A model generated the notes under the pieces. It was not told where the DNA came from, ran no database searches, and saw only the letters and a list, made by a program, of their open reading frames with translations. Positions 22,086 to 53,900 of a stretch of 64,000 nt of DNA are shown here, one piece after another. Made by a program: the position numbers and the translations under genes. Numbering within the stretch: position 1 is the stretch's first letter; each line of letters begins with the position of its first letter. This DNA is from Botryllus schlosseri (Eukaryota), in contig CM119372.1 of NCBI GenBank assembly GCA_051294905.1, forward strand, positions 25,422,001 to 25,486,000. The letters run 5' to 3'.

Positions 22086-24428
22086 CAGAGGTCTCAAACA
22101 CGCGGCCCGCGACGGTATTTTGGATTTCGAAGTATTCGAAATCCCGCCTGTCCTCATTCCTCGCCAAAATGTCTGTCATTTCCCCTCAACAATTTGGCTT
22201 CCGAAACAAACACCAAACCGCTCATGCCCTCCTAACAGTGGCCGAACAGTACTATGATATCTCAGAGAAGCGAAATGTGGGATGTAGCATTTTTCTCGAC
22301 CTAAAAAAAGCGTTTGACTGCGTGGATCATAAAATTCTCATCTCGAAATTGGCGCGTTACGGACTTACCTCACTGGACGCCAACAAATGGTTGCGATCTC
22401 AGACACCTTGTCCTCTCCTCACCCGGTGACCTGTGGTGTGCCCCAGGGCTCAGTACTTGGACCGGTCCTTTTCACCTTATATGTCAACGACATTTTTGAA
22501 ACCTCCTCATTGAACACCACACTGTTCGCTGATGATACTCACCTCCTCTCTTCCGCATCTTCGACGGCAGAGCTGGATGCCCTGACTGGTGACCAAATGC
22601 CCAAAGTCCATGACTGGACGGCCCAGAACAACCTTTGCATAAACGCCTCGAAATCGCAATTGCTGACAGTCAATTCAAAAAATAACCTTTAGAACCGTTA
22701 ATATCGCTGGTCAGCCCGTTTCCAACAATGATAATGCCAAATATCTCGGAGTTTTACTGGACTCGAACATGTCCTGGAAGAGTCATATTCAGTCCCTAGA
22801 AACTAAATTATCACCGAAGTGCGGCCTGTTCTACAGCCTTGGGCGTTTCATGCCAGCATGGGTTCTCCTGATACTCTTTAAATCATTAATCCAATCGAAG
22901 TTACATTATGGCATCCTCTGTTGGGGGGCTGCCAGTAAAACTGCACTCAAGCCACTGCAGAAACTACAGCATAAAGTGCTCCGAATCATAGCTAGGGCCC
23001 CAAAGGGGCCTGGCTGCCCATCCAATAAGTCGCTGCTGAAGAGATTCGGCGTCCTAAACATAGAAGATATGCGGAAACTAGAAATCGCCAAGTTTATGTA
23101 TCAGTTTCACTGCGGTCGTTGCCCCGAATATTTCAATGACTTCTTTACCTCTGAATCAAAAGCGCACAAGTACAACACACGCGCGTCCACGTCGTCCAAA
23201 TATCATATGATCGACCGAAAAGATCATCGCTCCATCAAATATGCCGGACCTGATGTGTGGAACAGTATCCCGCCGGCCATCCGACAGTCGACGAGCATGT
23301 CCACATTCAAGTCGAAATACAAGCAATTACTACTAAATAAATACAGTCCATCCTCAAGATTACCGGACCACGACTGACCTATCGATTTCGCTTCCCATGA
23401 CATGCCGCCCTATTTCTTATCGCTTTCTTTTTCTATCCTGTATTCTTTACTTTCATTCAGTGTGCATGCCTCCTCTTTACTACGCCTAGGCCAAGGTGGG
23501 TGTCCGATTCCATTGACAAATCCAAGTCGCTTCGACATCTTCCTGTCTATTCATTGTATCGCATTTTTGTGGTGTATTGAACTGATAAAATTGCTAATAA
23601 ACCAATGATGATGATGATCGACAATATTTAACTGCCAAATATCTTTTTTTTTGGAAACTAGAAATTCGCCCCAAAACTACTCCAGAAGCCTGAAACTACT
23701 CCTCAAACTTCACTATTACATCACTTTCAAAAGTTACCACGCAGTGGAAGATCAATGAATACTTGGGGCGATTTGACATTTCTATTGCTATGGCACATGT
23801 AATCATTATATTCAAGTTGCTATAGATCTGTTCCAATATTCGAAGGTAAATCTAACGCTGATTTAATTTGACTTAGGTAATGACATGATCAATAGTCTTG
23901 TTATCAAGAGTATGTCCGAAACCCGGATTAGGCTGCACTGTTCCACTGCTCCGATATCAGATCAATCTTTGTAAAATTCTAAAATATTCTACCTATAATT
24001 GTGACACGTCAAATGTCCGGTAGGTGCAAAATTATAACGCGACAGCTTTGACGATGTCCTGATGCATTTGTACTCTCGCATTATAGAATGTATTTTTTTT
24101 TACATTCTCTACTCGCATGGTGTCTACAACTGAATATATAGCAACTATGCCAAGTACAGCAACAATTTTATTCAAATATTTTAAAACGTGATTTTTTTCG
24201 TGCCAGGCGTGAATTCACTAGGTTCTCAGCCGTGTTTTGGCCGTGGCCCACCTCTTACAATAGTAAATCACATTTTCAAGATGAGTGTGGAATGTCAGTC
24301 TGCATGGTCCCGTCAAATAAGGCCTACTCGGAAATACATTGAATTCCCCTATTATCGGTGCTGCGGCCCGCGGCGCTTTCAAAAAGTAGGGAATTGGCCC
24401 GCCAGCACATTTGAGTTTGAGACCTCTG
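22086..24428. mobile_element. hAT MITE (CAGAGGTCTCAAAC TIR) hosting the LINE; diverged partial duplicate at ~24490-24990 and another end at ~36334-36470
   Basis: TIR pair CAGAGGTCTCAAAC / GTTTGAGACCTCTG with cggcccgc subterminal motifs; TSD degraded. Confidence 0.65.
22133..23617 (+). mobile_element. 5'-truncated non-LTR retrotransposon (CR1/L2 group), frameshifted RT pseudo-ORF plus 3' UTR
   Basis: RT motifs QFGFR, FLDLKKAFDCVDH, GVPQGSVLGP, LFADD, KYLG, then HKYNTR...WNSIP spread across ORFs 22169-22429, 22387-22692 and 22769-23377; ends in an (ATG)n tail. Confidence 0.92.
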
Positions 24429-38900: not shown

Positions 38901-41900
38901 CAAAATAAATCAGGAAGTAACTGAGTATTCATGTTGTAGTCGCGCAAAGTTGGAAATAGGTTAAAGTAAATGAATGAATTCGGTCAGTATTGTTGGTACT
39001 TGCATATATCGCTGGATGCATTTGTATCGCGGTGTTCAGATCGCAAGGACAGCAGTATTCAACGCCTGATGGACATATCAATATCGAACGTTTCAGTCAA
39101 CACGCGTCGACCATCTTTGGAAAAGGTTTCATAGCCGCAATCATTCTGGGAGATCACTCGCAAAGTCATATGTTGACCGAAATTTTATATACCGTGGTGT
39201 GCTGTGGCTCGGAGATTGGTGGCGCAGAAAAGCTAATCCCGCGGTCTGCACACCAATAGACAGAAACCTCTCAACTGCCTCGAGCTATACAAGGAATATT
39301 TCGTCTCATTATTGCGAATACAGTTAGGCTCATTTCTGTAAATTATGCCTATGTTTTCATTGTGATTTTGTGCAGGGAGTGGTATTAAATGCAAGAGACA
39401 CAGAGACAGAAAATTGCCGAAGCGCAAAGAAAAATTTCCACCTAAATAAATCAGCCGCGGAATACTCTACTTTTTGCAAAATTTACAAAGATTTGCGAAA
39501 AATGTGAGATTGAAACGGTTCCCTTCGCCTTCCTTGGCTATACGACAATGCGTCGAAGCTGTTTTATTCGTCATCGGCATACCAAATTTCGCGGTCACAC
39601 TAATCATATTATTGGTTGAACATGCCATGCAGTTCACAATAAATTACGGAGGCAAGCAATTTTTCGATATTAAGCTTTTATAGAAAACTACCGCACGGGT
39701 AACATCACATGTGACCCGCGAACCACGGGTTGGCCACCCCTGAATTCCTGAAAATGATATTTTTGTGAAGTCGTGATTAACATACTGCACAAAATGTCAA
39801 AAATTGTAACAAAATGCAATGAAACAGGTATGGTCAAAATAATATCACATTGTCTTTATGGGATGTAGATCTGACGCTGTTTTTGTTGTCGTCTAAAGGG
39901 TACATATTTAAACTGTCCCCAACATCCACACTCTTATGACGGCATAATGAGTGATGCTAGTAGTAAGGGTACCTGGATTATACGCCCGCCAATCAGAGAG
40001 CGCCACGTCATCCTAATTGCCACGCCCATTTTCATACCCTGAGGGTACATTCATCTGCTACGTCATCCGTGCCACATCATCAAGCGCCACGGCTATAGTG
40101 CCACATCATCCATCCATTGCTATATCATCGCTGCATTGATTGCCGCATCTTGATACTTTTCTCAGATATTGTATTATGTGTATTTAGGACTAATATCATC
40201 CGTCCATATTTTTTAAACTTGATTTTATGTGTATAAGTTACGGTTTCTGCAGTTTCCACATTTTAGGACTTATGATTGCCGCGTCAAAACTTACCTTGGC
40301 TATAGAATCGACAGATATTCTATTATGTGTATTTAGGACTATGTCATCAATATGTATTGATTAACTTGAAATGTATCATCACTAATTAATTAACATAAAA
40401 TGCGATTTTGAGCGCTGCGACTTGATAATATTAATCCCTACGCTTCTGATGAATGATTTTATGTGATTAGGACCTCGGTAACATTCAGATTCTGCAACGA
40501 TTGTTTGGATATACATTTTAGCAATACCCCACTAAACTATAGGCGGTTATATTACTCTATTGACCGGAGATAACTCATCCGTCCATATTTTTAAACTTGA
40601 TTTTATGTGTACGAGTTACGGTTTCTGCGGTCTCCACATTTTACGACTTATTTTGATTAGACGCAGGTAAGCGATTCTCAAGTTCGGAGCTATGGATCAT
40701 CAGCTCGCAGTGTAACCGCTACCTGTATAATGTTTGCATGTCGAGTATAAGGGTATTTAACTCGGCACTAAAATGCCAACGGAATAGCCGCAGGGAGCCG
40801 GTTCTCGTTGCTATAATTAAACGAACACCTTCGCCGCAGGTACGCGATCACCGACGTTATAATGATAAGGACAAATTAGCCGCATGAAAGCGAGTCTAAT
40901 GAATATAACGACAGACAACAAGTTAGTTGAAAAGTAAAACTAATCGTGACCGATGCAAGACGGCGTGAAACAGCGCTTTCGCTCGATTCTTGTAGTGACC
41001 ACAATTCATACGATTCAGTCCTTTTCATGTCACTAGAATAAGGGTGATTAAACCGACAGTGAAACGCCGCTTCACAATTGCAAGTTAGTGTAATGCAAAT
41101 TTTACCCCTTCAAGGGTTATAAAAGTATGGACGGCAAAAGGTATAATTTTGGGTCGACATGGTGCCTTAGCTATCTATCAATAGGTATGTAATATTTGTT
41201 GAAATAGTTGCTATTGATCATAGACCAAGCTTGCTTTCAGAGCTGGAAACGAAACGCATATGAAAATTTACCTAGGTGTTCCCCACACGCATCAAATGTA
41301 GGCCTACTCAAGTGTTTATGAGGTGGCGAATAGTTCGATGGTTGTTGGCATGCAAGGACGTCACATAGAATTGTGGAGTTTTCTGTAAACTATGATCCAG
41401 TGATCATTTTCAATCACTATATTTTTCATTAATCTAAACTAAGTACTGTTAGTAGGCAAACCCTAGGAAAGTATATCCTCTGATAAAAGCAGGAGTAATT
41501 TGTTATCCGTGAAATAAATAGATGATGCGACTCTAATGGACATAAAGTGCGAAAAATTACATTTTATCCCGGAACGTAGCAAAAAAAAATCGTATAAACT
41601 TTGTAAAGTAGATAGAAAACTACACCATTCCGATGCAGTGAAGACTCTTACACTCAGGATTTTGTGCAGTACATACTAATTTTACATTGCGGAGTATTCC
41701 ATAAACGTTAATCCAGTGATCCTCCTTCTATTTTCAATCACGATCCGTTTATTATTCCAGGCTTCGAACCCCGTAGCCAGTACGTTTTATGAGGATTAAT
41801 ATTTTTAGATTAAATATAGCGTATCGAGACTTCGTGAAACTTACTTGGAAATAGTTATTTCTACCCTAATTTAATAGATTTCTCAGACATCGTAGCAACG

Positions 41901-44900
41901 GAACTGGGTTGAGCGAGCGGTTAAGGCGTTGGACTTAAGTTTCAATGAACAAGTGTTCTAAGGGACTCATGTTTTAAGATAACCTAAACGCAAAGTGCAC
42001 GAATTTCCATAAACATGATATTCTTCGATATGATCAACTGAAACCACGGATGTGGTGGGTTAGAGTCTTGTCGTGATGGTCCGTTTCGAAATGCAAGCGG
42101 ATGAACTAGACCAAAAGTTTCGAAGATGCGTTTTATAATTGCTCTAGGTGTGAAATAGACATCGCACTCTTGCGGGGAAACAACACGAATTCAGTCTTCA
42201 CACAGCAGAAACACAGCCGCTTGGTTAACATCACAAAACCGCAATTGAACTCAAGATTGCCATACACGGAATCGCTGTTAACGATGTCTGACTGCGGCGT
42301 TTCGACGAGTAACGAAATCTCGTATTTAGTATTGATTGTGACACATAGTCAAAACAGCGACAGTTTTCACAACCCGATACATACATTGAACCAACTGATG
42401 TAAGGTGAAACACTACGTTCGCAGCAAAAAAGTTTGCAGGGTATGACCACCACCAACTTAAGCGTGAAATGTACAAATTTCTATGTTGCGCAAATACCAC
42501 AAACTTTGCTTGCTTTCAGTGCCGGCAACTAAATGCAAGACAGAATTTACGCAAAAGTTGCTATTCTGAAAATGTTGTCAAGGTAATAGTTTAAAAACTT
42601 ACACTTGAGCACTACGAAATGTTCAAGTACTTTATCTTTACACGACGTTTTTTGTAAAATGAATACTAATATTATTGAAAAAATAAAAAATAAAAAGAGC
42701 GAAAAATTACATTTTATCCCGGAACGCAACAAGAAAAATCGTATGAATTTGTAAACTACTTATTCATGACATAATAATAATTCTACTTGTACACTTTTTC
42801 ACACTTTATAACACTTTAAGTAGTACTTAACAGTTTCAGTTTTAAATAAAATACGGAATATAAACTAATCGAAAAATTCGGTTACCAATTTCGCGTAGGC
42901 TATGCATACAAATGAGGAAAGTTACATCAACGCGTGTTAACTAGTTGTATCGAGTTATCGAATGATTTTTTTTCTTTACATCAAAATAACTAGAGTGTGT
43001 AACTACATTAAAAACGTATCTAAATGAGCTCCAGGTCATTGTGATTATGCAGCATACCAAATTTCATCACACATTTCATGATGGAACAACTTTAAAACTA
43101 ACGCAGTTCTATAGCAACTTTTGCCTAAATCTGTTTTCGGTAGCATGTACATATCCATAGTCAGCTTTAATAACAGAATTACCATGCTAATATGTGACTC
43201 CTCACCTTGAAACTTGGTACCTAGTTGTAGGACATTGTGATTATGCAGCATACCAAATTTCTTCACGCATTTCATAATGGAACAACTTTAAAACTAACGC
43301 GGCTCTACATCGACTTTTTGCGTACATCTGTTTTGCGGGAGCGTATAGCACGTACCTATACATAGTCAACTTTAATAACGGAATTACCATGCTTAACATT
43401 GAATCCCAACTCTAAACTTGATTCGTAGTTGTAGGACATTGTGGCAATGCACCATGCTAAATTTCATCGCACATCTAACGATGGATCACCTTTAAAACTA
43501 ACGCAGTCGAATACCGACTTTTAAGCATATCTGTTTTGCGTGAACATAGCATATACCTATGCATAGTCAATTTTAATAGCAGAATTACCGTGTTAAACAT
43601 TGAATTCCCACCTTGAAAGTTGGTACGCGATTATAGGACACTATAACAATGCACCATACCAAATCCCATCACACATTTCATGATGGAACAACTTTAAAAC
43701 TAACGCGGCTCTACATCGACTTTTTGCGTATATCTGTTTTGCGGGGGCGTATAGCACGTACTCATACATAGCTAACTTTAATAACGGAATTACCATGCTT
43801 AACATTGAATCCCAACTCTAAACTTGATACGTAGTTGTAGGACATTATGGCAATGAACCATGCTAAATTTCATCACACATCTAATGATGGAACACCTTTG
43901 AAACTATCGCAGTCGAATACCGACTTTTACACATATCTGTTTTTCGTGAACATAGCATATACCCATACATAGTCAATTTTAATAACAGAATTAGCATGCT
44001 AAACCTTAAATTCTCACCTTGAACGTTGGTACCCAGTTGTAGGACATAATAACAATGCACCATACCAAATTTCGTCAGGCATTTCATGATGTAACACTTT
44101 CAAAACCAACGCAGTTCTATACAGGCTTTTGGCTAAATCTGTTTTTCCGTAGCGTAGCACGTACCTATACATAGTCAACTTTAATATCAATACATGTTTA
44201 TCGTAAGTCCTACACAGTCATGATATCCGCCCGAGTTTGACTTTTAGAAAACATTATACCGACATCGCGACATCTTACAAAATTGAAACCGCGGTGACTG
44301 CTTGAGAGACCTACCAGTGATATCGCAGTAATCTAGTTACTTCCACAAAATAGTATGTATTCAACTTACTTGCCACAAATCTAACGCGCAAAACAATTTA
44401 CTTTGCTAACGAAAAGTGCTGAGTCATCATATCATTATCCACGCAACAATACACCTAAAACATACTATCGTACAAAATGGTCGCTAACCTCTTTGTGCAC
44501 CAGCTGTAAATCTCACAAGCAACAAGTTTCAAGATTCCAGTTATTGAAAAAATGTTAAAGTGTTTCTCCTGCGCCAAGTCGTTATGTTGACGAAAGCGTA
44601 TATTGTAATATCATGATCGATTTGCATTCGTTGCTCACAAACTGTCACTACTCTAAATAATTATTTTTCACTCAAACACAACAGCATACTTGTCGCCATT
44701 CGTTTTCATCAAGCACGAGTTCAATAAACTTACTTACTACGACATGAATTGGTATTTTTATGTTGTGTAAATAGGTAATAATTAATTTTAGTAACACTAT
44801 ACCAACATCATCGAGTTGTGCGAATAGATTTACATGTGGTGTTATGGTTTTAATCGAAGTACACTGCACGATCTAATGTAGAGTCATCTCTATTGTATAG

Positions 44901-47900
44901 CAACTCGGTAATCGAAATGCATGCATTAACATTTAAACAGCGATCGTGTTTCGTCACGCGAAAAATATGTTCACTACTGCGATACTCTGCACAGGGCATG
45001 CAAATCCTTTTCACACTCGTAATAGTATACCAACGGCTACCGGCGACAACGTTTACCAATACCAACGACACTAAACATACGATACCTACCCAATCTGCAA
45101 ATTGTTTCGATTTATTCTGTCTGTTTCAATTTAAGATAAGGAAGCCCATTTCACTCAATGTATCGATGTCTACGGTACTCTACAAAATTTTCTGATTAAT
45201 TCTCCCTATGCTTATTTATCACAAGAAAGATGATTTGATACCTAAAGTACGAAATACTTTTTCGCTTGAGCTAAGCCGCAGCGCCTGGAGTGGAATTTTA
45301 CGGGGTATGTGGACTCATTTCGTAGGGCTCTATGCCATAGGAGCATACTTTACGCTCCAATTCGATTCCCACACATTGCATATAATTACTAACAGAACCA
45401 TTGAGTACCAGCCTTGACATTTTCCGTAGTACTAGATGGCATGTATACAATTTCACGACATCCGACATTACGACGAAGACTATCAAAATATCGAAAGAAG
45501 CCCTCTATTCTTTTCTGAAATAATCAAGGTTTTATCAGGACTTCCCTTCATATAAACTCCACCAGAATCACTAATAACCTCTCAAGTGTACTCAATTTAC
45601 TCTAATTTGATACTCGTGTACCAAATCCCTATTTTCCGCAAGTATGATAGAGGCTATCGCTCGATACTCAACGATTCGTAATTTTGCTGGAATACAAGTA
45701 CAATTAGTTTAAAGTAGTTTGAGGTTACGTTTGTATCACCTCGACAAGTGCTATTATCAAAAAATGCTTTTGCTAAACTCTTACACTTTCACTAAACTTC
45801 TACACTGAATCTTGTAAAGTAGATAGAAAAGGAAAACTATTAACATAAGGTAAGTGAGGAGCACGCAAATTTCGATTGCATACAAATGCCACAAACTGCG
45901 CTAACTTCCAGAGTTGTTAAGTATAGAAGTACTCGTACGTCTTGAGAATACCCAAGTAGGTTTTTTGCCTACATGTACCAAATACTCTCAAGTCCTTATG
46001 ATATTGGAGTACATCAACTTCATGATAGCTACAGTATTAAACAGAAATAGACCTAGAGTACTAACGTTTTTGTGCAGTGAGAGTTCGCAAATTATCGAAG
46101 TATTTTTGTTATTTTTATTGCGATAAGTCATTCTGCAGCGCAAAAATGCGTCGTAGGATATAGATGAAACTAGCACCACTCATCAAGACCGCTGATAACA
46201 GTACATTTCAACATTTAGTTGCAGTAAATTTCGAGTAAAGTACAAGAAGTGATGATTTCCGAGTGAGTTAAAAAGTACGTATTGCAGGTATAGTTTACCT
46301 GAAAACCGAATACTCTGAAATAGAAGTAGATGCAGTGTAAATAGTTAATCACTTGATTAAGTATAGCGCAAGCAGATAAAACCTATACTTGAGTACTACA
46401 AAATACACGAGTACTTCGCTATCGACTCCCTCCACGTAATAAGTGACTACGGTTTAAGACTGCTTTTACCGATACTCGTCAGTTTCCGTTTTAGATAGAA
46501 TTCGGAAACCAAATAATTTCATAAACATAAGCTAATTAAATGAATTTACTCGAATGTACTATGCCGCGCTGATAAGATTAATTATAATATACTTATCACG
46601 TTAGAGCGATTTTTCTAGCGTAGAAAATCTTTAAAATGTAGTAAGCAGGCCAATATGAAGATATTCGTTGAGCTGAATAAACATAAAAAATACTCTAGAC
46701 TACTTTATCGGTACTTTACAGTTTCAGTTTTAGATAAAATTTGTCCCTTTCACTCCTCGCTATCTAACATGTTTAGAATATATTATTTGCGATGATACGA
46801 ACCCGTAAAGTACTCAAGTAGCTTTTCGTTGGATATAGATGAAACTGACACCACTCACCAAGACCACTGGCCCACTGACAAAAAGTACATTTCAACATTT
46901 TAGTAACAGTAAAGTCCTACTAAAGTACAAGAAGTCATGATTTCCGAGTGAGTTGAAAAGTAAGTATTGAAGGTATAGTTTGCTCGAAAACCGAAAAAAC
47001 TCTGAAATAGAAGTAGATGCAGTGTAAATAGTCAATCACTTCATTTAGTATAGCGCAAGCAGGCCAAACCTATACTTGAGTACTCCAAAATATACAAGTA
47101 CTCCCTCCACGTAAAAAGCGACTAGGGTTTAGACTACTTTATCGGTACTTGAAAGTTTTAGATAAAATTTGGTGAGACTTTAAATTTTAAAGTAGTTTGA
47201 GCTTACGTTTGTATCACCTTGACAAGTATCATTATCAGACATGAAAATGATGCTATCAACTAATACAGAAGTTAACACACGTCAATGTGCTTCGGAATTC
47301 ACGAGAAATTGCTTACTAAGAGAAGTATATTCTTGTATACACAATAGTGGAGAGAATCTTTAAAATGTAGTAAGCAGGCCGATGGGTATTCATTGAGTTG
47401 TATAAGCATAAAAAACATTCCCGCGCGCGTCTTAGTATTAGGTGGTAGGGTAGGAAGTGTTAGGTTTAGGAGCGCGCGGGAATCGAATTGGAGCGTAAAG
47501 TATGCTCCTATGGCATAGAGCCCTACGAAATGAGTCCACATACCCCGTAAAATTCCACTCCAGGCGCTGCGGCTTAGCTCAAGCGAAAAAGTATTTCGTA
47601 CTTTAGGTATCAAATCATCTTTCTTGTGATAAATAAGCATAGGGAGAATTAATCAGAAAATTTTGTAGAGTACCGTAGACATCGATACATTGAGTGAAAT
47701 GGGCTTCCTTATCTTAAATTGAAACAGACAGAATAAATCGAAACAATTTGCAGATTGGGTAGGTATCGTATGTTTAGTGTCGTTGGTATTGGTAAACGTT
47801 GTCGCCGGTAGCCGTTGGTATACTATTACGAGTGTGAAAAGGATTTGCATGCCCTGTGCAGAGTATCGCAGTAGTGAACATATTTTTCGCGTGACGAAAC

Positions 47901-50900
47901 ACGATCGCTGTTTAAATGTTAATGCATGCATTTCGATTACCGAGTTGCTATACAATAGAGATGACTCTACATTAGATCGTGCAGTGTACTTCGATTAAAA
48001 CCATAACACCACATGTAAATCTATTCGCACAACTCGATGATGTTGGTATAGTGTTACTAAAATTAATTATTACCTATTTACACAACATAAAAATACCAAT
48101 TCATGTCGTAGTAAGTAAGTTTATTGAACTCGTGCTTGATGAAAACGAATGGCGACAAGTATGCTGTTGTGTTTGAGTGAAAAATAATTATTTAGAGTAG
48201 TGACAGTTTGTGAGCAACGAATGCAAATCGATCATGATATTACAATATACGCTTTCGTCAACATAACGACTTGGCGCAGGAGAAACACTTTAACATTTTT
48301 TCAATAACTGGAATCTTGAAACTTGTTGCTTGTGAGATTTACAGCTGGTGCACAAAGAGGTTAGCGACCATTTTGTACGATAGTATGTTTTAGGTGTATT
48401 GTTGCGTGGATAATGATATGATGACTCAGCACTTTTCGTTAGCAAAGTAAATTGTTTTGCGCGTTAGATTTGTGGCAAGTAAGTTGAATACATACTATTT
48501 TGTGGAAGTAACTAGATTACTGCGATATCACTGGTAGGTCTCTCAAGCAGTCACCGCGGTTTCAATTTTGTAAGATGTCGCGATGTCGGTATAATGTTTT
48601 CTAAAAGTCAAACTCGGGCGGATATCATGACTGTGTAGGACTTACGATAAACATGTATTGATATTAAAGTTGACTATGTATAGGTACGTGCTACGCTACG
48701 GAAAAACAGATTTAGCCAAAAGCCTGTATAGAACTGCGTTGGTTTTGAAAGTGTTACATCATGAAATGCCTGACGAAATTTGGTATGGTGCATTGTTATT
48801 ATGTCCTACAACTGGGTACCAACGTTCAAGGTGAGAATTTAAGGTTTAGCATGCTAATTCTGTTATTAAAATTGACTATGTATGGGTATATGCTATGTTC
48901 ACGAAAAACAGATATGTGTAAAAGTCGGTATTCGACTGCGATAGTTTCAAAGGTGTTCCATCATTAGATGTGTGATGAAATTTAGCATGGTTCATTGCCA
49001 TAATGTCCTACAACTACGTATCAAGTTTAGAGTTGGGATTCAATGTTAAGCATGGTAATTCCGTTATTAAAGTTAGCTATGTATGAGTACGTGCTATACG
49101 CCCCCGCAAAACAGATATACGCAAAAAGTCGATGTAGAGCCGCGTTAGTTTTAAAGTTGTTCCATCATGAAATGTGTGATGGGATTTGGTATGGTGCATT
49201 GTTATAGTGTCCTATAATCGCGTACCAACTTTCAAGGTGGGAATTCAATGTTTAACACGGTAATTCTGCTATTAAAATTGACTATGCATAGGTATATGCT
49301 ATGTTCACGCAAAACAGATATGCTTAAAAGTCGGTATTCGACTGCGTTAGTTTTAAAGGTGATCCATCGTTAGATGTGCGATGAAATTTAGCATGGTGCA
49401 TTGCCACAATGTCCTACAACTACGAATCAAGTTTAGAGTTGGGATTCAATGTTAAGCATGGTAATTCCGTTATTAAAGTTGACTATGTATAGGTACGTGC
49501 TATACGCTCCCGCAAAACAGATGTACGCAAAAAGTCGATGTAGAGCCGCGTTAGTTTTAAAGTTGTTCCATTATGAAATGCGTGAAGAAATTTGGTATGC
49601 TGCATAATCACAATGTCCTACAACTACGTACCAAGTTTCAAGGTGAGGAGTCACATATTAGCATGGTAATTCTGTTATTAAAGCTGACTATGGATATGTA
49701 CATGCTACCGAAAACAGATTTAGGCAAAAGTTGCTATAGAACTGCGTTAGTTTTAAAGTTGTTCCATCATGAAATGTGTGATGAAATTTGGTATGCTGCA
49801 TAATCACAATGACCTGGAGCTCATTTAGATACGTTTTTAATGTAGTTACACACTCTAGTTATTTTGATGTAAAGAAAAAAAATCATTCGATAACTCGATA
49901 CAACTAGTTAACACGCGTTGATGTAACTTTCCTCATTTGTATGCATAGCCTACGCGAAATTGGTAACCAAATTTTTCGATTAGTTTATATTCCGTATTTT
50001 ATTTAAAACTGAAACTGTTAAGTACTACTTAAAGTGTTATAAAGTGTGAAAAAGTGTACAAGTAGAATTATTATTATGTCATGAATAAGTAGTTTACAAA
50101 TTCATACGATTTTTCTTGTTGCGTTCCGGGATAAAATGTAATTTTTCGCTCTTTTTATTTTTTATTTTTTCAATAATATTAGTATTCATTTTACAAAAAA
50201 CGTCGTGTAAAGATAAAGTACTTGAACATTTCGTAGTGCTCAAGTGTAAGTTTTTAAACTATTACCTTGACAACATTTTCAGAATAGCAACTTTTGCGTA
50301 AATTCTGTCTTGCATTTAGTTGCCGGCACTGAAAGCAAGCAAAGTTTGTGGTATTTGCGCAACATAGAAATTTGTACATTTCACGCTTAAGTTGGTGGTG
50401 GTCATACCCTGCAAACTTTTTTGCTGCGAACGTAGTGTTTCACCTTACATCAGTTGGTTCAATGTATGTATCGGGTTGTGAAAACTGTCGCTGTTTTGAC
50501 TATGTGTCACAATCAATACTAAATACGAGAATTCGTTACTCGTCGAAACGCCGCAGTCAGACATCGTTAACAGCGATTCCGTGTATGGCAATCTTGAGTT
50601 CAATTGCGGTTTTGTGATGTTAACCAAGCGGCTGTGTTTCTGCTGTGTGAAGACTGAATTCGTGTTGTTTCCCCGCAAGAGTGCGATGTCTATTTCACAC
50701 CTAGAGCAATTATAAAACGCATCTTCGAAACTTTTGGTCTAGTTCATCCGCTTGCATTTCGAAACGGACCATCACGACAAGACTCTAACCCACCACATCC
50801 GTGGTTTCAGTTGATCATATCGAAGAATATCATGTTTATGGAAATTCGTGCACTTTGCGTTTAGGTTATCTTAAAACATGAGTCCCTTAGAACACTTGTT

Positions 50901-53900
50901 CATTGAAACTTAAGTCCAACGCCTTAACCGCTCGCTCAACCCAGTTCCGTTGCTACGATGTCTGAGAAATCTATTAAATTAGGGTAGAAATAACTATTTC
51001 CAAGTAAGTTTCACGAAGTCTCGATACGCTATATTTAATCTAAAAATATTAATCCTCATAAAACGTACTGGCTACGGGGTTCGAAGCCTGGAATAATAAA
51101 CGGATCGTGATTGAAAATAGAAGGAGGATCACTGGATTAACGTTTATGGAATACTCCGCAATGTAAAATTAGTATGTACTGCACAAAATCCTGAGTGTAA
51201 GAGTCTTCACTGCATCGGAATGGTGTAGTTTTCTATCTACTTTACAAAGTTTATACGATTTTTTTTGCTACGTTCCGGGATAAAATGTAATTTTTCGCAC
51301 TTTATGTCCATTAGAGTCGCATCATCTATTTATTTCACGGATAACAAATTACTCCTGCTTTTATCAGAGGATATACTTTCCTAGGGTTTGCCTACTAACA
51401 GTACTTAGTTTAGATTAATGAAAAATATATTGATTGAAAATGATCACTGGATCATAGTTTACAGAAAACTCCACAATTCTATGTGACGTCCTTGCATGCC
51501 AACAACCATCGAACTATTCGCCACCTCATAAACACTTGAGTAGGCCTACATTTGATGCGTGTGGGGAACACCTAGGTAAATTTTCATATGCGTTTCGTTT
51601 CCAGCTCTGAAAGCAAGCTTGGTCTATGATCAATAGCAACTATTTCAACAAATATTACATACCTATTGATAGATAGCTAAGGCACCATGTCGACCCAAAA
51701 TTATACCTTTTGCCGTCCATACTTTTATAACCCTTGAAGGGGTAAAATTTGCATTACACTAACTTGCAATTGTGAAGCGGCGTTTCACTGTCGGTTTAAT
51801 CACCCTTATTCTAGTGACATGAAAAGGACTGAATCGTATGAATTGTGGTCACTACAAGAATCGAGCGAAAGCGCTGTTTCACGCCGTCTTGCATCGGTCA
51901 CGATTAGTTTTACTTTTCAACTAACTTGTTGTCTGTCGTTATATTCATTAGACTCGCTTTCATGCGGCTAATTTGTCCTTATCATTATAACGTCGGTGAT
52001 CGCGTACCTGCGGCGAAGGTGTTCGTTTAATTATAGCAACGAGAACCGGCTCCCTGCGGCTATTCCGTTGGCATTTTAGTGCCGAGTTAAATACCCTTAT
52101 ACTCGACATGCAAACATTATACAGGTAGCGGTTACACTGCGAGCTGATGATCCATAGCTCCGAACTTGAGAATCGCTTACCTGCGTCTAATCAAAATAAG
52201 TCGTAAAATGTGGAGACCGCAGAAACCGTAACTTGTACACATAAAATCAAGTTTAAAAATATGGACGGATGAGTTATCTCCGGTCAATAGAGTAATATAA
52301 CCGCCTATAGTTTAGTGGGGTATTGCTAAAATGTATATCCAAACAATCGTTGCAGAATCTGAATGTTACCGAGGTCCTTATCACATAAAATCATTCATCA
52401 GACGCGTAGGGATTAATATTATCAAGTCGCAGCGCTCAAAATCGCATTTTATGTTAATTAATTAGTGATGATACATTTCAAGTTAATCAATACATATTGA
52501 TGACATAGTCCTAAATACACATAATAGAATATCTGTCGATTCTAGCCAAGGTAAGTTTTGACGCGGCAAACATAAGTCCTAAAATGTGGAAACTGCAGAA
52601 ACCGTAACTTATACACATAAAATCAAGTTTAAAAAATATGGACGGATGATATTAGTCCTAAATACACATAATACAATATCTGAGAAAAGTATCAAGATGC
52701 GGCAATCAATGCAGCGATGATATAGCAATGGATGGATGATGTGGCACTATAGCCGTGGCGCTTGATGATGTGGCACGGATGACGTAGCAGATGAATGTAC
52801 CCTCAGGGTATGAAAATGGGCGTGGCAATTAGGATGACGTGGCGCTCTCTGATTGGCGGGCGTATAATCCAGGTACCCTTACTACTGATGCTAAAATACT
52901 CGACTCGAAAGCTATAATACTTTATTCGCAATCGAATCAGTAAGGTACCCGTTTTGCCAGTGAACTGAAGACCATATCACAAACCCACCATCCGTACGCA
53001 ATCGCACAAAATCTGGCAGCTATTCCACTTTTGAAAAGTACTCGAGTGGTCTCCACGACACCTGTTGACGATACGTTTCCTTTACAAGTAACGTGATTGT
53101 TTGCATTCTGAAGATTAAGACAAAAAGCGAAATAGAAATTTGTTAACCATGCTATCCATATTTACTCTCAATGCTTCTACAAACTGCTTCTCCCTGTTGT
53201 TTTGCTTCGCAATGCGACGAAGGCACCTTATTGCGTCGTCACTTCTACCTTGTTGGGCTAACCAACGCGGTGACTCCGGACAGAACCTTTAGATTTCAAT
53301 CAGTCAAAATAATTCTGTCCGCGTTTCAGCGGTATTAACGTACATTGCCAGAGAGAAAGAAGCCCGTCATATTTTATCTAATGATATGTTCTTGATATTT
53401 CGAGTGCATGAATATAACCAGAACTGGTCTGGTCCGTAACGAAGTTTTGTCTGCATGCGCTACTGAATCAATTTCCACTTCTACTCGACAGTTTACTTGT
53501 TACAATTTTGATCTTGTAAAGTTGAAACTAGTTTTGTGATATGCTGGCATCAATTTGATGAGTAAAGCTATAATAACTAGTCGAATTAGTCCATGGATGA
53601 AGGTAACTGAATTTTGGAAAATTGCACCTATATGTAGTCTACAGTGTCATTAGTAATTCGCGATGGTCGTGAAGATACATTTTGCTATTTCCAAATTAGC
53701 CACAGCCGATTAACTTCTAAAGCATGCGACACCTTTAATACTTGAGTACTTTTCTTCCCTTCATCTTTTCACTTCCCTAGATGTAGTTTTGACATGTCTT
53801 TTAACTCACAACTTCTGCTTCTAATTTACTAAATATTTCAGGCATCCCCTTGACTTCTACTTGAGTCCAACGCTGACTACTTTCACCACATCTGATTGTG

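Follow-up and report, generated by a model that had tools for sequence, protein, structure and literature searches.

How does a stretch of DNA that carries no gene, and that consists largely of two mirrored arms, come to sit between perfect copies of a target site in the manner of a mobile element? The question is raised by a 12.9-kb element in the genome of Botryllus schlosseri. It lies in the window that we analysed, a 64,000-nucleotide (nt) stretch of contig CM119372.1 (C2:25422001-25486000 of a 495.5-Mb assembly in 219 contigs), and spans 39959-52886; positions given without a contig or locus name are those of the window. The element starts AGTAGTAAGGGTACC, and its right end, GGTACCCTTACTACT, is the reverse complement of that start. 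Our answer, to which we would give a probability of about 0.7 on the sequence evidence set out below, is that it is a deletion derivative of a palindrome that belongs to a non-autonomous family of the Maverick/Polinton kind. We use the label “W type” for this family of gene-less, whole-element palindromes.

The outline of the element had been drawn in a first-pass annotation made from the letters alone. Its AGTAGT and ACTACT ends, its 6-bp GATGCT duplication and its two inverted arms of ~5.4 kb were all confirmed, as follows.

39953-39958, no strand: left copy of the target-site duplication GATGCT; the hexamer is identical on both sides.
39959-39964, plus strand: left terminal (AGT)2 end motif, invariant in 30/30 family ends and a Maverick motif according to PMC8097293.
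39959-45370, plus strand: left arm, 5,412 nt, 99.80% reverse-complementary to 47478-52886.
47478-52886, minus strand: right arm, 5,409 nt, which closes with (ACT)2 at 52881-52886.
52887-52892, no strand: right copy of the target-site duplication GATGCT, a perfect match to the left copy.

When the arms are aligned (5,412 columns, 99.80% identity) they differ at 10 places, close to the dozen or so that had been estimated. Eight of these are substitutions; the other two are a 2-nt indel at 40301-40302 and a one-nucleotide length difference within an A run at 41581. Every one is confined to 40275-43221, that is, to the outer 3.3 kb of the arm. Between the two arms lie 2,107 nt. The description of the element as gene-less also holds. 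Its longest stop-to-stop frame is 117 amino acids (aa), a Pfam search of it returned no match at the curated cut-off and no rve integrase, and no Rfam family or tRNA was found in it. Similarly, tblastn with eight frames of the autonomous Maverick resident in this genome (described below) found nothing in the window element, and nothing at E < 0.08 inside the 11 related copies that we studied, none of which has a frame of > 220 aa. Among RNA runs, X12 gave 97 reads, 95 of them only partial fits, and X16 gave 4 reads on 3.7 kb.

The insertion is neither a chance arrangement nor a local artefact; it is a slightly damaged copy in a large family. A genome-wide count of a 25-nt block that starts 31 nt from the end gave 132 + 134 occurrences at ≤2 mismatches (control pattern, 0 + 0), which corresponds to about 130 elements; the same block has no exact match among viral contigs or metagenome contigs. 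Copies of the terminal 300 nt face each other in pairs spaced 12-25 kb. The 100 listed places of the 25-nt block yield 37 pairs with a median length of 15,520 nt (quartiles 14,520 and 16,783), and 27 of the 37 fall within 14-18 kb. The 11 copies studied comprise the window copy and ten others that were fetched. Eight of the ten are self-complementary over their full length (14,251-15,726 nt, 99.27-99.76%), and the other two, with arms of 4.4-4.5 kb around a middle of 3.3-3.6 kb, resemble the window copy. Kilobase-scale modules differ from copy to copy. The ends do not: (AGT)2//(ACT)2 was present in all 30 ends examined (15 elements). Twelve of these 15 elements have a perfect 6-bp duplication, each a different one, and in the remaining three the two hexamers agree at 4, 4, and 5 positions of the 6; the first-pass annotation had suggested looking for just such copies. 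It had also named findings that would tell against it, namely termini at no other loci, duplications of another length, and termini proper to another superfamily. Each was looked at, and none refutes it.

Where that annotation does need correcting is in the middle of the element, which it had taken for a 2.1-kb spacer. The features concerned are these.

45371-47414, plus strand: inner part of the left arm, the mirror copy of which is deleted; the former “spacer.”
47415-47483, plus strand: family centre, with left stem 47415-47429, loop 47430-47472, and right-stem remnant 47473-47483; it stands at the very start of the right arm.
47478-47483, plus strand: deletion junction with the 6-nt microhomology GGGAAT, directly after the centre.

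The same centre is found exactly once in 11/11 copies. It reads ACATTCCCGCGCGCG, then an asymmetric G/T-rich loop of ~45 nt, then CGCGCGGGAATGT, and is thus a short CG-rich inverted repeat, with CGCGCG stems, around a loop. In the eight full palindromes it stands at the geometric middle. Because all 11 copies have it, the palindrome architecture must be inherited by the family rather than made afresh in each copy. The centre word occurs 287 + 279 times in the genome (control, 5 + 8), that is, there are about 280 centres; as this is twice the number of W-type end pairs, further end variants evidently share the centre. The loop resembles degenerate TTAGGG repeats of telomere type, with a score of 19 in the window copy against a shuffle mean of 7.2 (0/1000 shuffles reach 19). 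Scores across the 11 copies run from 13 to 20 against shuffle means of ~7, and are reached by ≤2/1,000 shuffles in ten copies and by 19/1,000 in copy C9. It is worth remembering that these scores count as one observation, since the copies are not independent.

Comparison with a full palindrome, C4a, explains the middle of the window copy. An alignment of window positions 45232-47483 with the inner arm plus centre of C4a gives 98.9% identity in 2,252 columns. Relative to C4a, about 2,046 nt are absent from the window between two direct GGGAAT hexamers. Given this homology and the presence of GGGAAT at both breaks, the “spacer” is inner arm sequence together with the family centre. By the same alignment the window copy is shown to be a deletion derivative, which lost about 2,046 bp of one arm at the GGGAAT microhomology. 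It is not the only one. Copy C3c has a similar deletion on the opposite side of the loop and C3b a more complex one, so that centre-adjacent one-arm deletions occur in 3/11 copies, where they are neither mirrored nor repaired. One-sided deletion next to the centre is the classical way in which long palindromes decay.

How, then, do the arms stay so alike? We oriented the copies by their loops and checked each arm difference in the other copies. With the loop excluded, the 11 copies have 7, 10, 9, 4, 20, 17, 12, 43, 5, 0, and 11 arm differences (range 0-43). Not one was common to two copies in 149 evaluable comparisons; in each case the arms of the other copy carried one allele. Differences between copies behave in the opposite way. 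Over the 55 copy pairs, 3,154 of 3,357 resolved substitutions (94%) are mirrored in both arms and 203 are in one arm, with a further 949 unresolved. Each full palindrome self-aligns from end to end with ≤28 gap positions, and the kilobase-scale module differences are mirrored exactly in both arms of all eight. Since a change arises in one arm, mirrored differences need copying from arm to arm. One arm has therefore been copied from the other, either during propagation or in place; rebuilding at a propagation stage and gene conversion in place both fit, and they are not exclusive. The arm differences that do exist cluster towards the centre, with 32/74 in the innermost fifth of the arm (leaving out copy C6, which has an internal duplication). 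The first-pass annotation had offered recent origin or homogenisation as reasons for the low arm divergence. Homogenisation is borne out by the mirrored substitutions and, because the arms are homogenised, low divergence is not usable as a sign of youth.

The terminal regions have two parts that behave quite differently.

39965-39988, plus strand: hypervariable subterminal segment of 24 nt, with its mirror at 52857-52880.
39989-40129, plus strand: conserved terminal block starting CCAATCAGAG, with its mirror at 52716-52856.

No two of the 17 elements compared have the same version of the 24-nt segment (mean pairwise identity 51%), yet it is the same at both ends of an element in 13/13 pairs. 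Its versions look like mosaics built from a few sub-segments. The block that follows is nearly invariant, with between-element identities of 99.3% at positions 31-60 and 97.6% at positions 61-100, and includes five direct GCYAYRTCATC iterons (40002-40129). This iteron has 12 matches in the window, where 0.16 would be expected, and ten of the 12 fall in the two ends of the element.

What kind of element is it? In the accessible text of Barreat and Katzourakis 2021 (PMC8097293), the commonest conserved end motif of vertebrate Mavericks is 5'-(AGT)2//(ACT)2-3', (AG)3/(CT)3 is an alternative repeated end motif, the target-site duplications are perfect and of 6 bp, the inverted ends measure 46-1,447 bp, and the elements measure 16.9 +/- 1.7 kb. 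According to the same source, the presumed role of the end repeats is in the jumping-back step of protein-primed replication. The W type agrees with Mavericks in end motif, in 6-bp duplication, in having terminal inverted repeats, and in a length near 15-17 kb, and an autonomous Maverick coexists with it in this genome. It departs from them in gene content, since genes for polymerase, integrase, capsid, protease, and ATPase are all lacking. The inverted repeats of the W type are also extreme when set against the 46-1,447 bp of intact Mavericks: 5.4 kb in the window copy and, with arms of ~7 kb, up to the whole element in full copies. The W type is assigned to the Mavericks on cis features only.

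The resident autonomous Maverick (C3:9620390-9637770) is 17.4 kb long, with the duplication GTGGTT. Its ends begin AGTAGTATAG (AGTAGTATAGTCG), and its terminal inverted repeats, 99% identical, extend for at least 400 nt. It encodes a stand-alone integrase frame of 359 aa (rve, E 2.4e-16, plus a chromodomain, E 2.2e-9) and an ATPase frame of 215 aa with weak AAA and Pox_A32-like matches, most of them under Pfam cut-offs. The polymerase frame, of 1,212 aa, has a weak PF03175 match of its own (E 0.39), and that domain is carried by 106 of its 120 best relatives; a phmmer search of solved structures with this frame returned no hit at E ≤ 1. The element is young and present in high copy number, with at least 39 other copies that match it at 98-99% along 2.3 kb.

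Two further observations were made on this Maverick. The copy that we read differs from the 39 others to the left of position 1746 of L052 (L052:1-1745, C3:9622501-9624245), through a replacement or an insertion, and this part holds a 131-nt stretch that is 82% identical to 41074-41203 in the palindrome arm. Near its end, the Maverick has a 217-aa frame (L053:3827-4477, plus strand) without a Pfam match. In protein-language features it comes closest, among named clusters, to OB-fold nucleic-acid-binding proteins (scores 0.92-0.95), which gives a lead towards a candidate element-encoded single-strand-binding protein.

Many end pairs of the resident Maverick are spaced only 13-14 kb apart, and one such pair was read. 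A sister palindrome, of what we call the P type, lies at C6:24570924-24584289 (L055/L058/L056). It is 13,366 nt long, with arms of ~6.5 kb and a spacer of 339 nt, and a 600-nt sample of its far arm matches the mirror place exactly. Its outer 1.43 kb are 94.7% identical to the right end of the resident Maverick (1,441 columns), and within that part each arm has an open, 214-aa copy of the Maverick end-proximal frame. That giant palindromes with true Maverick ends exist in the same genome makes a Maverick reading of the W type more likely.

How might such an element move? We propose that a retroviral-type integrase of a Maverick, supplied in trans, would insert it, and that a protein-primed Maverick polymerase would copy it, with the AGT repeat serving the jumping-back step. 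During propagation, the molecule could fold back at the short inverted repeat of the centre, and a half-molecule or hairpin could then be copied into a full palindrome, on the model of snap-back defective viral genomes (PMC13506859). Gene conversion between the arms may act in place, alone or alongside this route, and a constraint on size in packaging or replication may underlie the helper-like length. A propagation-stage route is favoured by two things: kilobase-scale differences are mirrored, and the three deletions that followed insertion are not. Taken further, and only as a tentative picture, the W type may consist of heritable snap-back Maverick satellites. These would be gene-less hairpin-dimer genomes of helper size, reduced to two copies of an end for replication and integration and a dedicated fold-back centre with a telomere-repeat-like loop, in which one arm is rebuilt in each round and which a helper replicates, perhaps packages, and integrates. 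The 24-nt segment might then be a by-product of end regeneration or a mark of specificity.

Several points weigh against assigning the W type to the Mavericks, or against a hairpin stage. W-type and resident-Maverick ends share only AGTAGTA (7 nt), beyond which the W terminal block is not homologous to that of the resident element (compare the 94.7% of the P type), and the subterminal repeats or iterons differ; a different helper may therefore be needed. Of the autonomous Polinton with the same ends that the first-pass annotation had hoped for, the end motif and the duplication length were found, and the terminal sequence was not. No Maverick-derived sequence was detected in the W arms, in a comparison with a Maverick copy that is without the usual left part. 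Nor was an autonomous element with W-type ends found in a narrow search, which compared weak PF03175 places and Maverick copies with the listed termini on contigs C1-C8, and sampled one pair spaced 20 kb. None of the places and copies on C1-C8 lies between listed W-type termini, and a 2.2-kb sample from the midpoint of the 20-kb pair, which has no listed centre, is non-coding arm sequence. Pairs of W-type ends that likewise have no listed centre occur at C3:20059739-20075100 and, spaced 9 kb, at C1:20357046-20366049. As signatures, a 6-bp duplication and an AG...CT end are both short. It should also be said that we infer the helper, the replicative hairpin stage, and the packaging alike from a W type that is known here as integrated sequence. 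Finally, the duplications differ at 5/90 positions and the arms at about 0.1-0.3%; decay of the duplications above arm divergence is a sign that homogenisation occurs in place, and mirroring would then need no hairpin stage to account for it.

This last point leads to the possibility, which we hold to be real without finding it persuasive, that the arms are alike solely through gene conversion in place and that the shape plays no part in propagation, a view that is compatible with mobilisation by Mavericks. Arm differences private to each copy agree with it, as does the decay of the duplications. It has more trouble with the exact mirroring of kilobase-scale modules in 8/8 full palindromes, with the arm deletions in the window copy, C3b, and C3c that were neither mirrored nor repaired, and with the crowding of arm differences into the inner fifth, something not expected under a simple model of conversion. 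Large chromosomal palindromes are known to be kept alike by arm-to-arm conversion, and palindromes form at a short inverted repeat near a break (Tetrahymena ribosomal DNA, yeast). They resemble the W type in arms that are near-identical despite their age, in a short inverted repeat that encloses a small spacer on the axis, and in asymmetric deletions next to the centre; the W palindrome differs as a mobile unit with target-site duplications, not a local rearrangement.

Another question is whether a different kind of transposon could be responsible. Foldback transposons (Drosophila FB, sea-urchin TU) have very long inverted arms with tandem arrays and little or no coding sequence. The W type is like them in its (nearly) non-coding content, in long arms with internal tandem arrays, and in the hairpin shape of the whole, and one could suppose a foldback-type element of another DDE transposase family with 6-bp duplications, its likeness to Mavericks being a short end motif. 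Subterminal iterons unlike those of the resident Maverick, and an autonomous partner that the narrow search did not find, would suit such an element. We nevertheless think it unlikely. Drosophila foldback elements, like the FB/MuDR-like group generally, make 9-bp duplications, whereas those of the W type are of 6 bp throughout; the W type has a conserved centre loop, and its 7-kb arms are a mosaic of unique sequence, not mainly short repeats. Lengths cluster at Maverick size, and a sister palindromic family carries 1.43 kb of true Maverick end. The exact (AGT)2//(ACT)2 in 30/30 ends, together with the 6-bp duplications, is the Maverick signature given in PMC8097293.

The first-pass annotation had itself proposed a non-autonomous Polinton derivative, in which a recent copy-back of one Polinton end had given rise to this copy before it integrated as a unit. 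The cis features of Maverick type and the absence of genes uphold the first half of that proposal. The second half looked reasonable enough, with nearly identical arms and Polinton-type ends, and long inverted repeats are familiar from defective adenovirus DNA. Full-length palindromic snap-back or copy-back defective viral genomes are described as well (PMC13506859, accessible text), and like the W type they are genome-length, non-coding palindromes with two copies of one functional end; they depend on a helper, as the W type probably does. Even so, a recent copy-back here is highly improbable. The centre and the architecture are in 11/11 copies, and the centre at about 280 loci, so they are inherited; Polinton sequence was not detected in the arms; and the “spacer” is an arm remnant. 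W copies also differ from snap-back genomes in being integrated, inherited, and present in hundreds, with no helper-derived sequence detected in their arms, and they are known here as integrated copies.

Could the palindrome be a fold-back made during assembly? Long-read assembly can create palindromes, and our support from reads covers the left junction only: a read-derived contig of run X1 agrees perfectly with 39300-39988 and so extends 30 nt inside the element, one nt short of our bridging rule, and X1 is possibly the sample behind the assembly itself. Read depth in X1 is ~20 on the flank and in the thousands on the element; reads of run X5 leave the unique flank uncovered. An artefact is barely credible when more than 100 loci each have their own 6-bp duplication and their own 24-nt end segment, and when the window copy is marked by a specific deletion at a microhomology as well as by 10 differences between its arms. 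That the copies are assembly copies of one locus is excluded by their different duplications and flanks.

Comparable elements are hard to find in print. A full-text literature search, which had Repbase entries and subscription papers outside its scope, found no description of a whole-element palindromic or foldback-shaped Maverick/Polinton derivative. The accessible part of a protist preprint (10.64898/2026.07.28.741278) describes only short, 52-nt terminal palindromes. Tlr1 has been termed a “non-autonomous polinton” by some authors, yet carries genes (PMC5499653, accessible text).

The arms of the window copy also contain repeats, two of which deserve a line each.

43007-44130, plus strand: in the left arm, tandem repeats with a period of 202/406 nt, with a mirror array at 48703-49815; repeat families D1-D6.
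44330-45093, plus strand: segment of another dispersed repeat carried in the arm, with its mirror at 47755-48518; it matches part of the second palindromic family at 85.9% identity.

The dispersed repeat into which copy C7a of the W type is inserted is also represented in part, symmetrically, in both window arms (44330-45093 and 47755-48518). Positions 4794-5096 of L055, part of the dispersed repeat in the window arms, correspond to the right flank of C7a. Copy C9 sits inside Maverick-end-like sequence.

Some candidates and neighbours were set aside. The PF03175 profile had no match in the host genome at E ≤ 0.001 and nine weak ones at E ≤ 10, two of which were rejected as Mavericks because they are polymerases of cellular type. 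One, a 1,455-aa frame (L059:1482-5849, minus strand), is uninterrupted and has pol-alpha domains; the other, an uninterrupted 1,075-aa frame (L051:3082-6306, minus strand), we take to be like pol delta, judging its motifs by eye. These two frames may be intronless genes or retrocopies. The profile of the adenain-type protease, PF00770, had no match in the host genome, and its control likewise matched nowhere. A third (AGT)2 terminus, AGTAGTAGGGGGCAATT, starts at C3:9641589 (L053:9089-10000), 3.8 kb past the right end of the Maverick, and its similarity to the W-type end is not above that of shuffles. Elsewhere in the window, 22667-23377 (plus strand) is an open frame of 236 aa that by eye looks like the C-terminal part of a reverse transcriptase from a retrotransposon without long terminal repeats.

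For those who work with this genome, the practical consequences are simple. About 280 near-perfect palindromes of 14-16 kb are potential fragile sites and, with centre-adjacent one-arm deletions in 3/11 copies, offer a clean system in which to study palindrome decay. Annotators should know that assemblers can collapse or mis-join long palindromes of this kind.

For the elements themselves, the interest lies in replication. Mavericks/Polintons are thought to replicate as linear, protein-primed genomes, and we know of no case in which this has been directly observed. To our knowledge, no sizeable family of non-autonomous or satellite derivatives of Mavericks has been described before, and the W type would be the first. 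With Maverick-type ends, a fold-back centre, a length near that of a helper, and arms templated on each other, it provides natural and testable evidence on how Mavericks replicate. Taken together, these features suggest hairpin or panhandle intermediates, repair of one end from the opposite end, and perhaps a size limit set by packaging.

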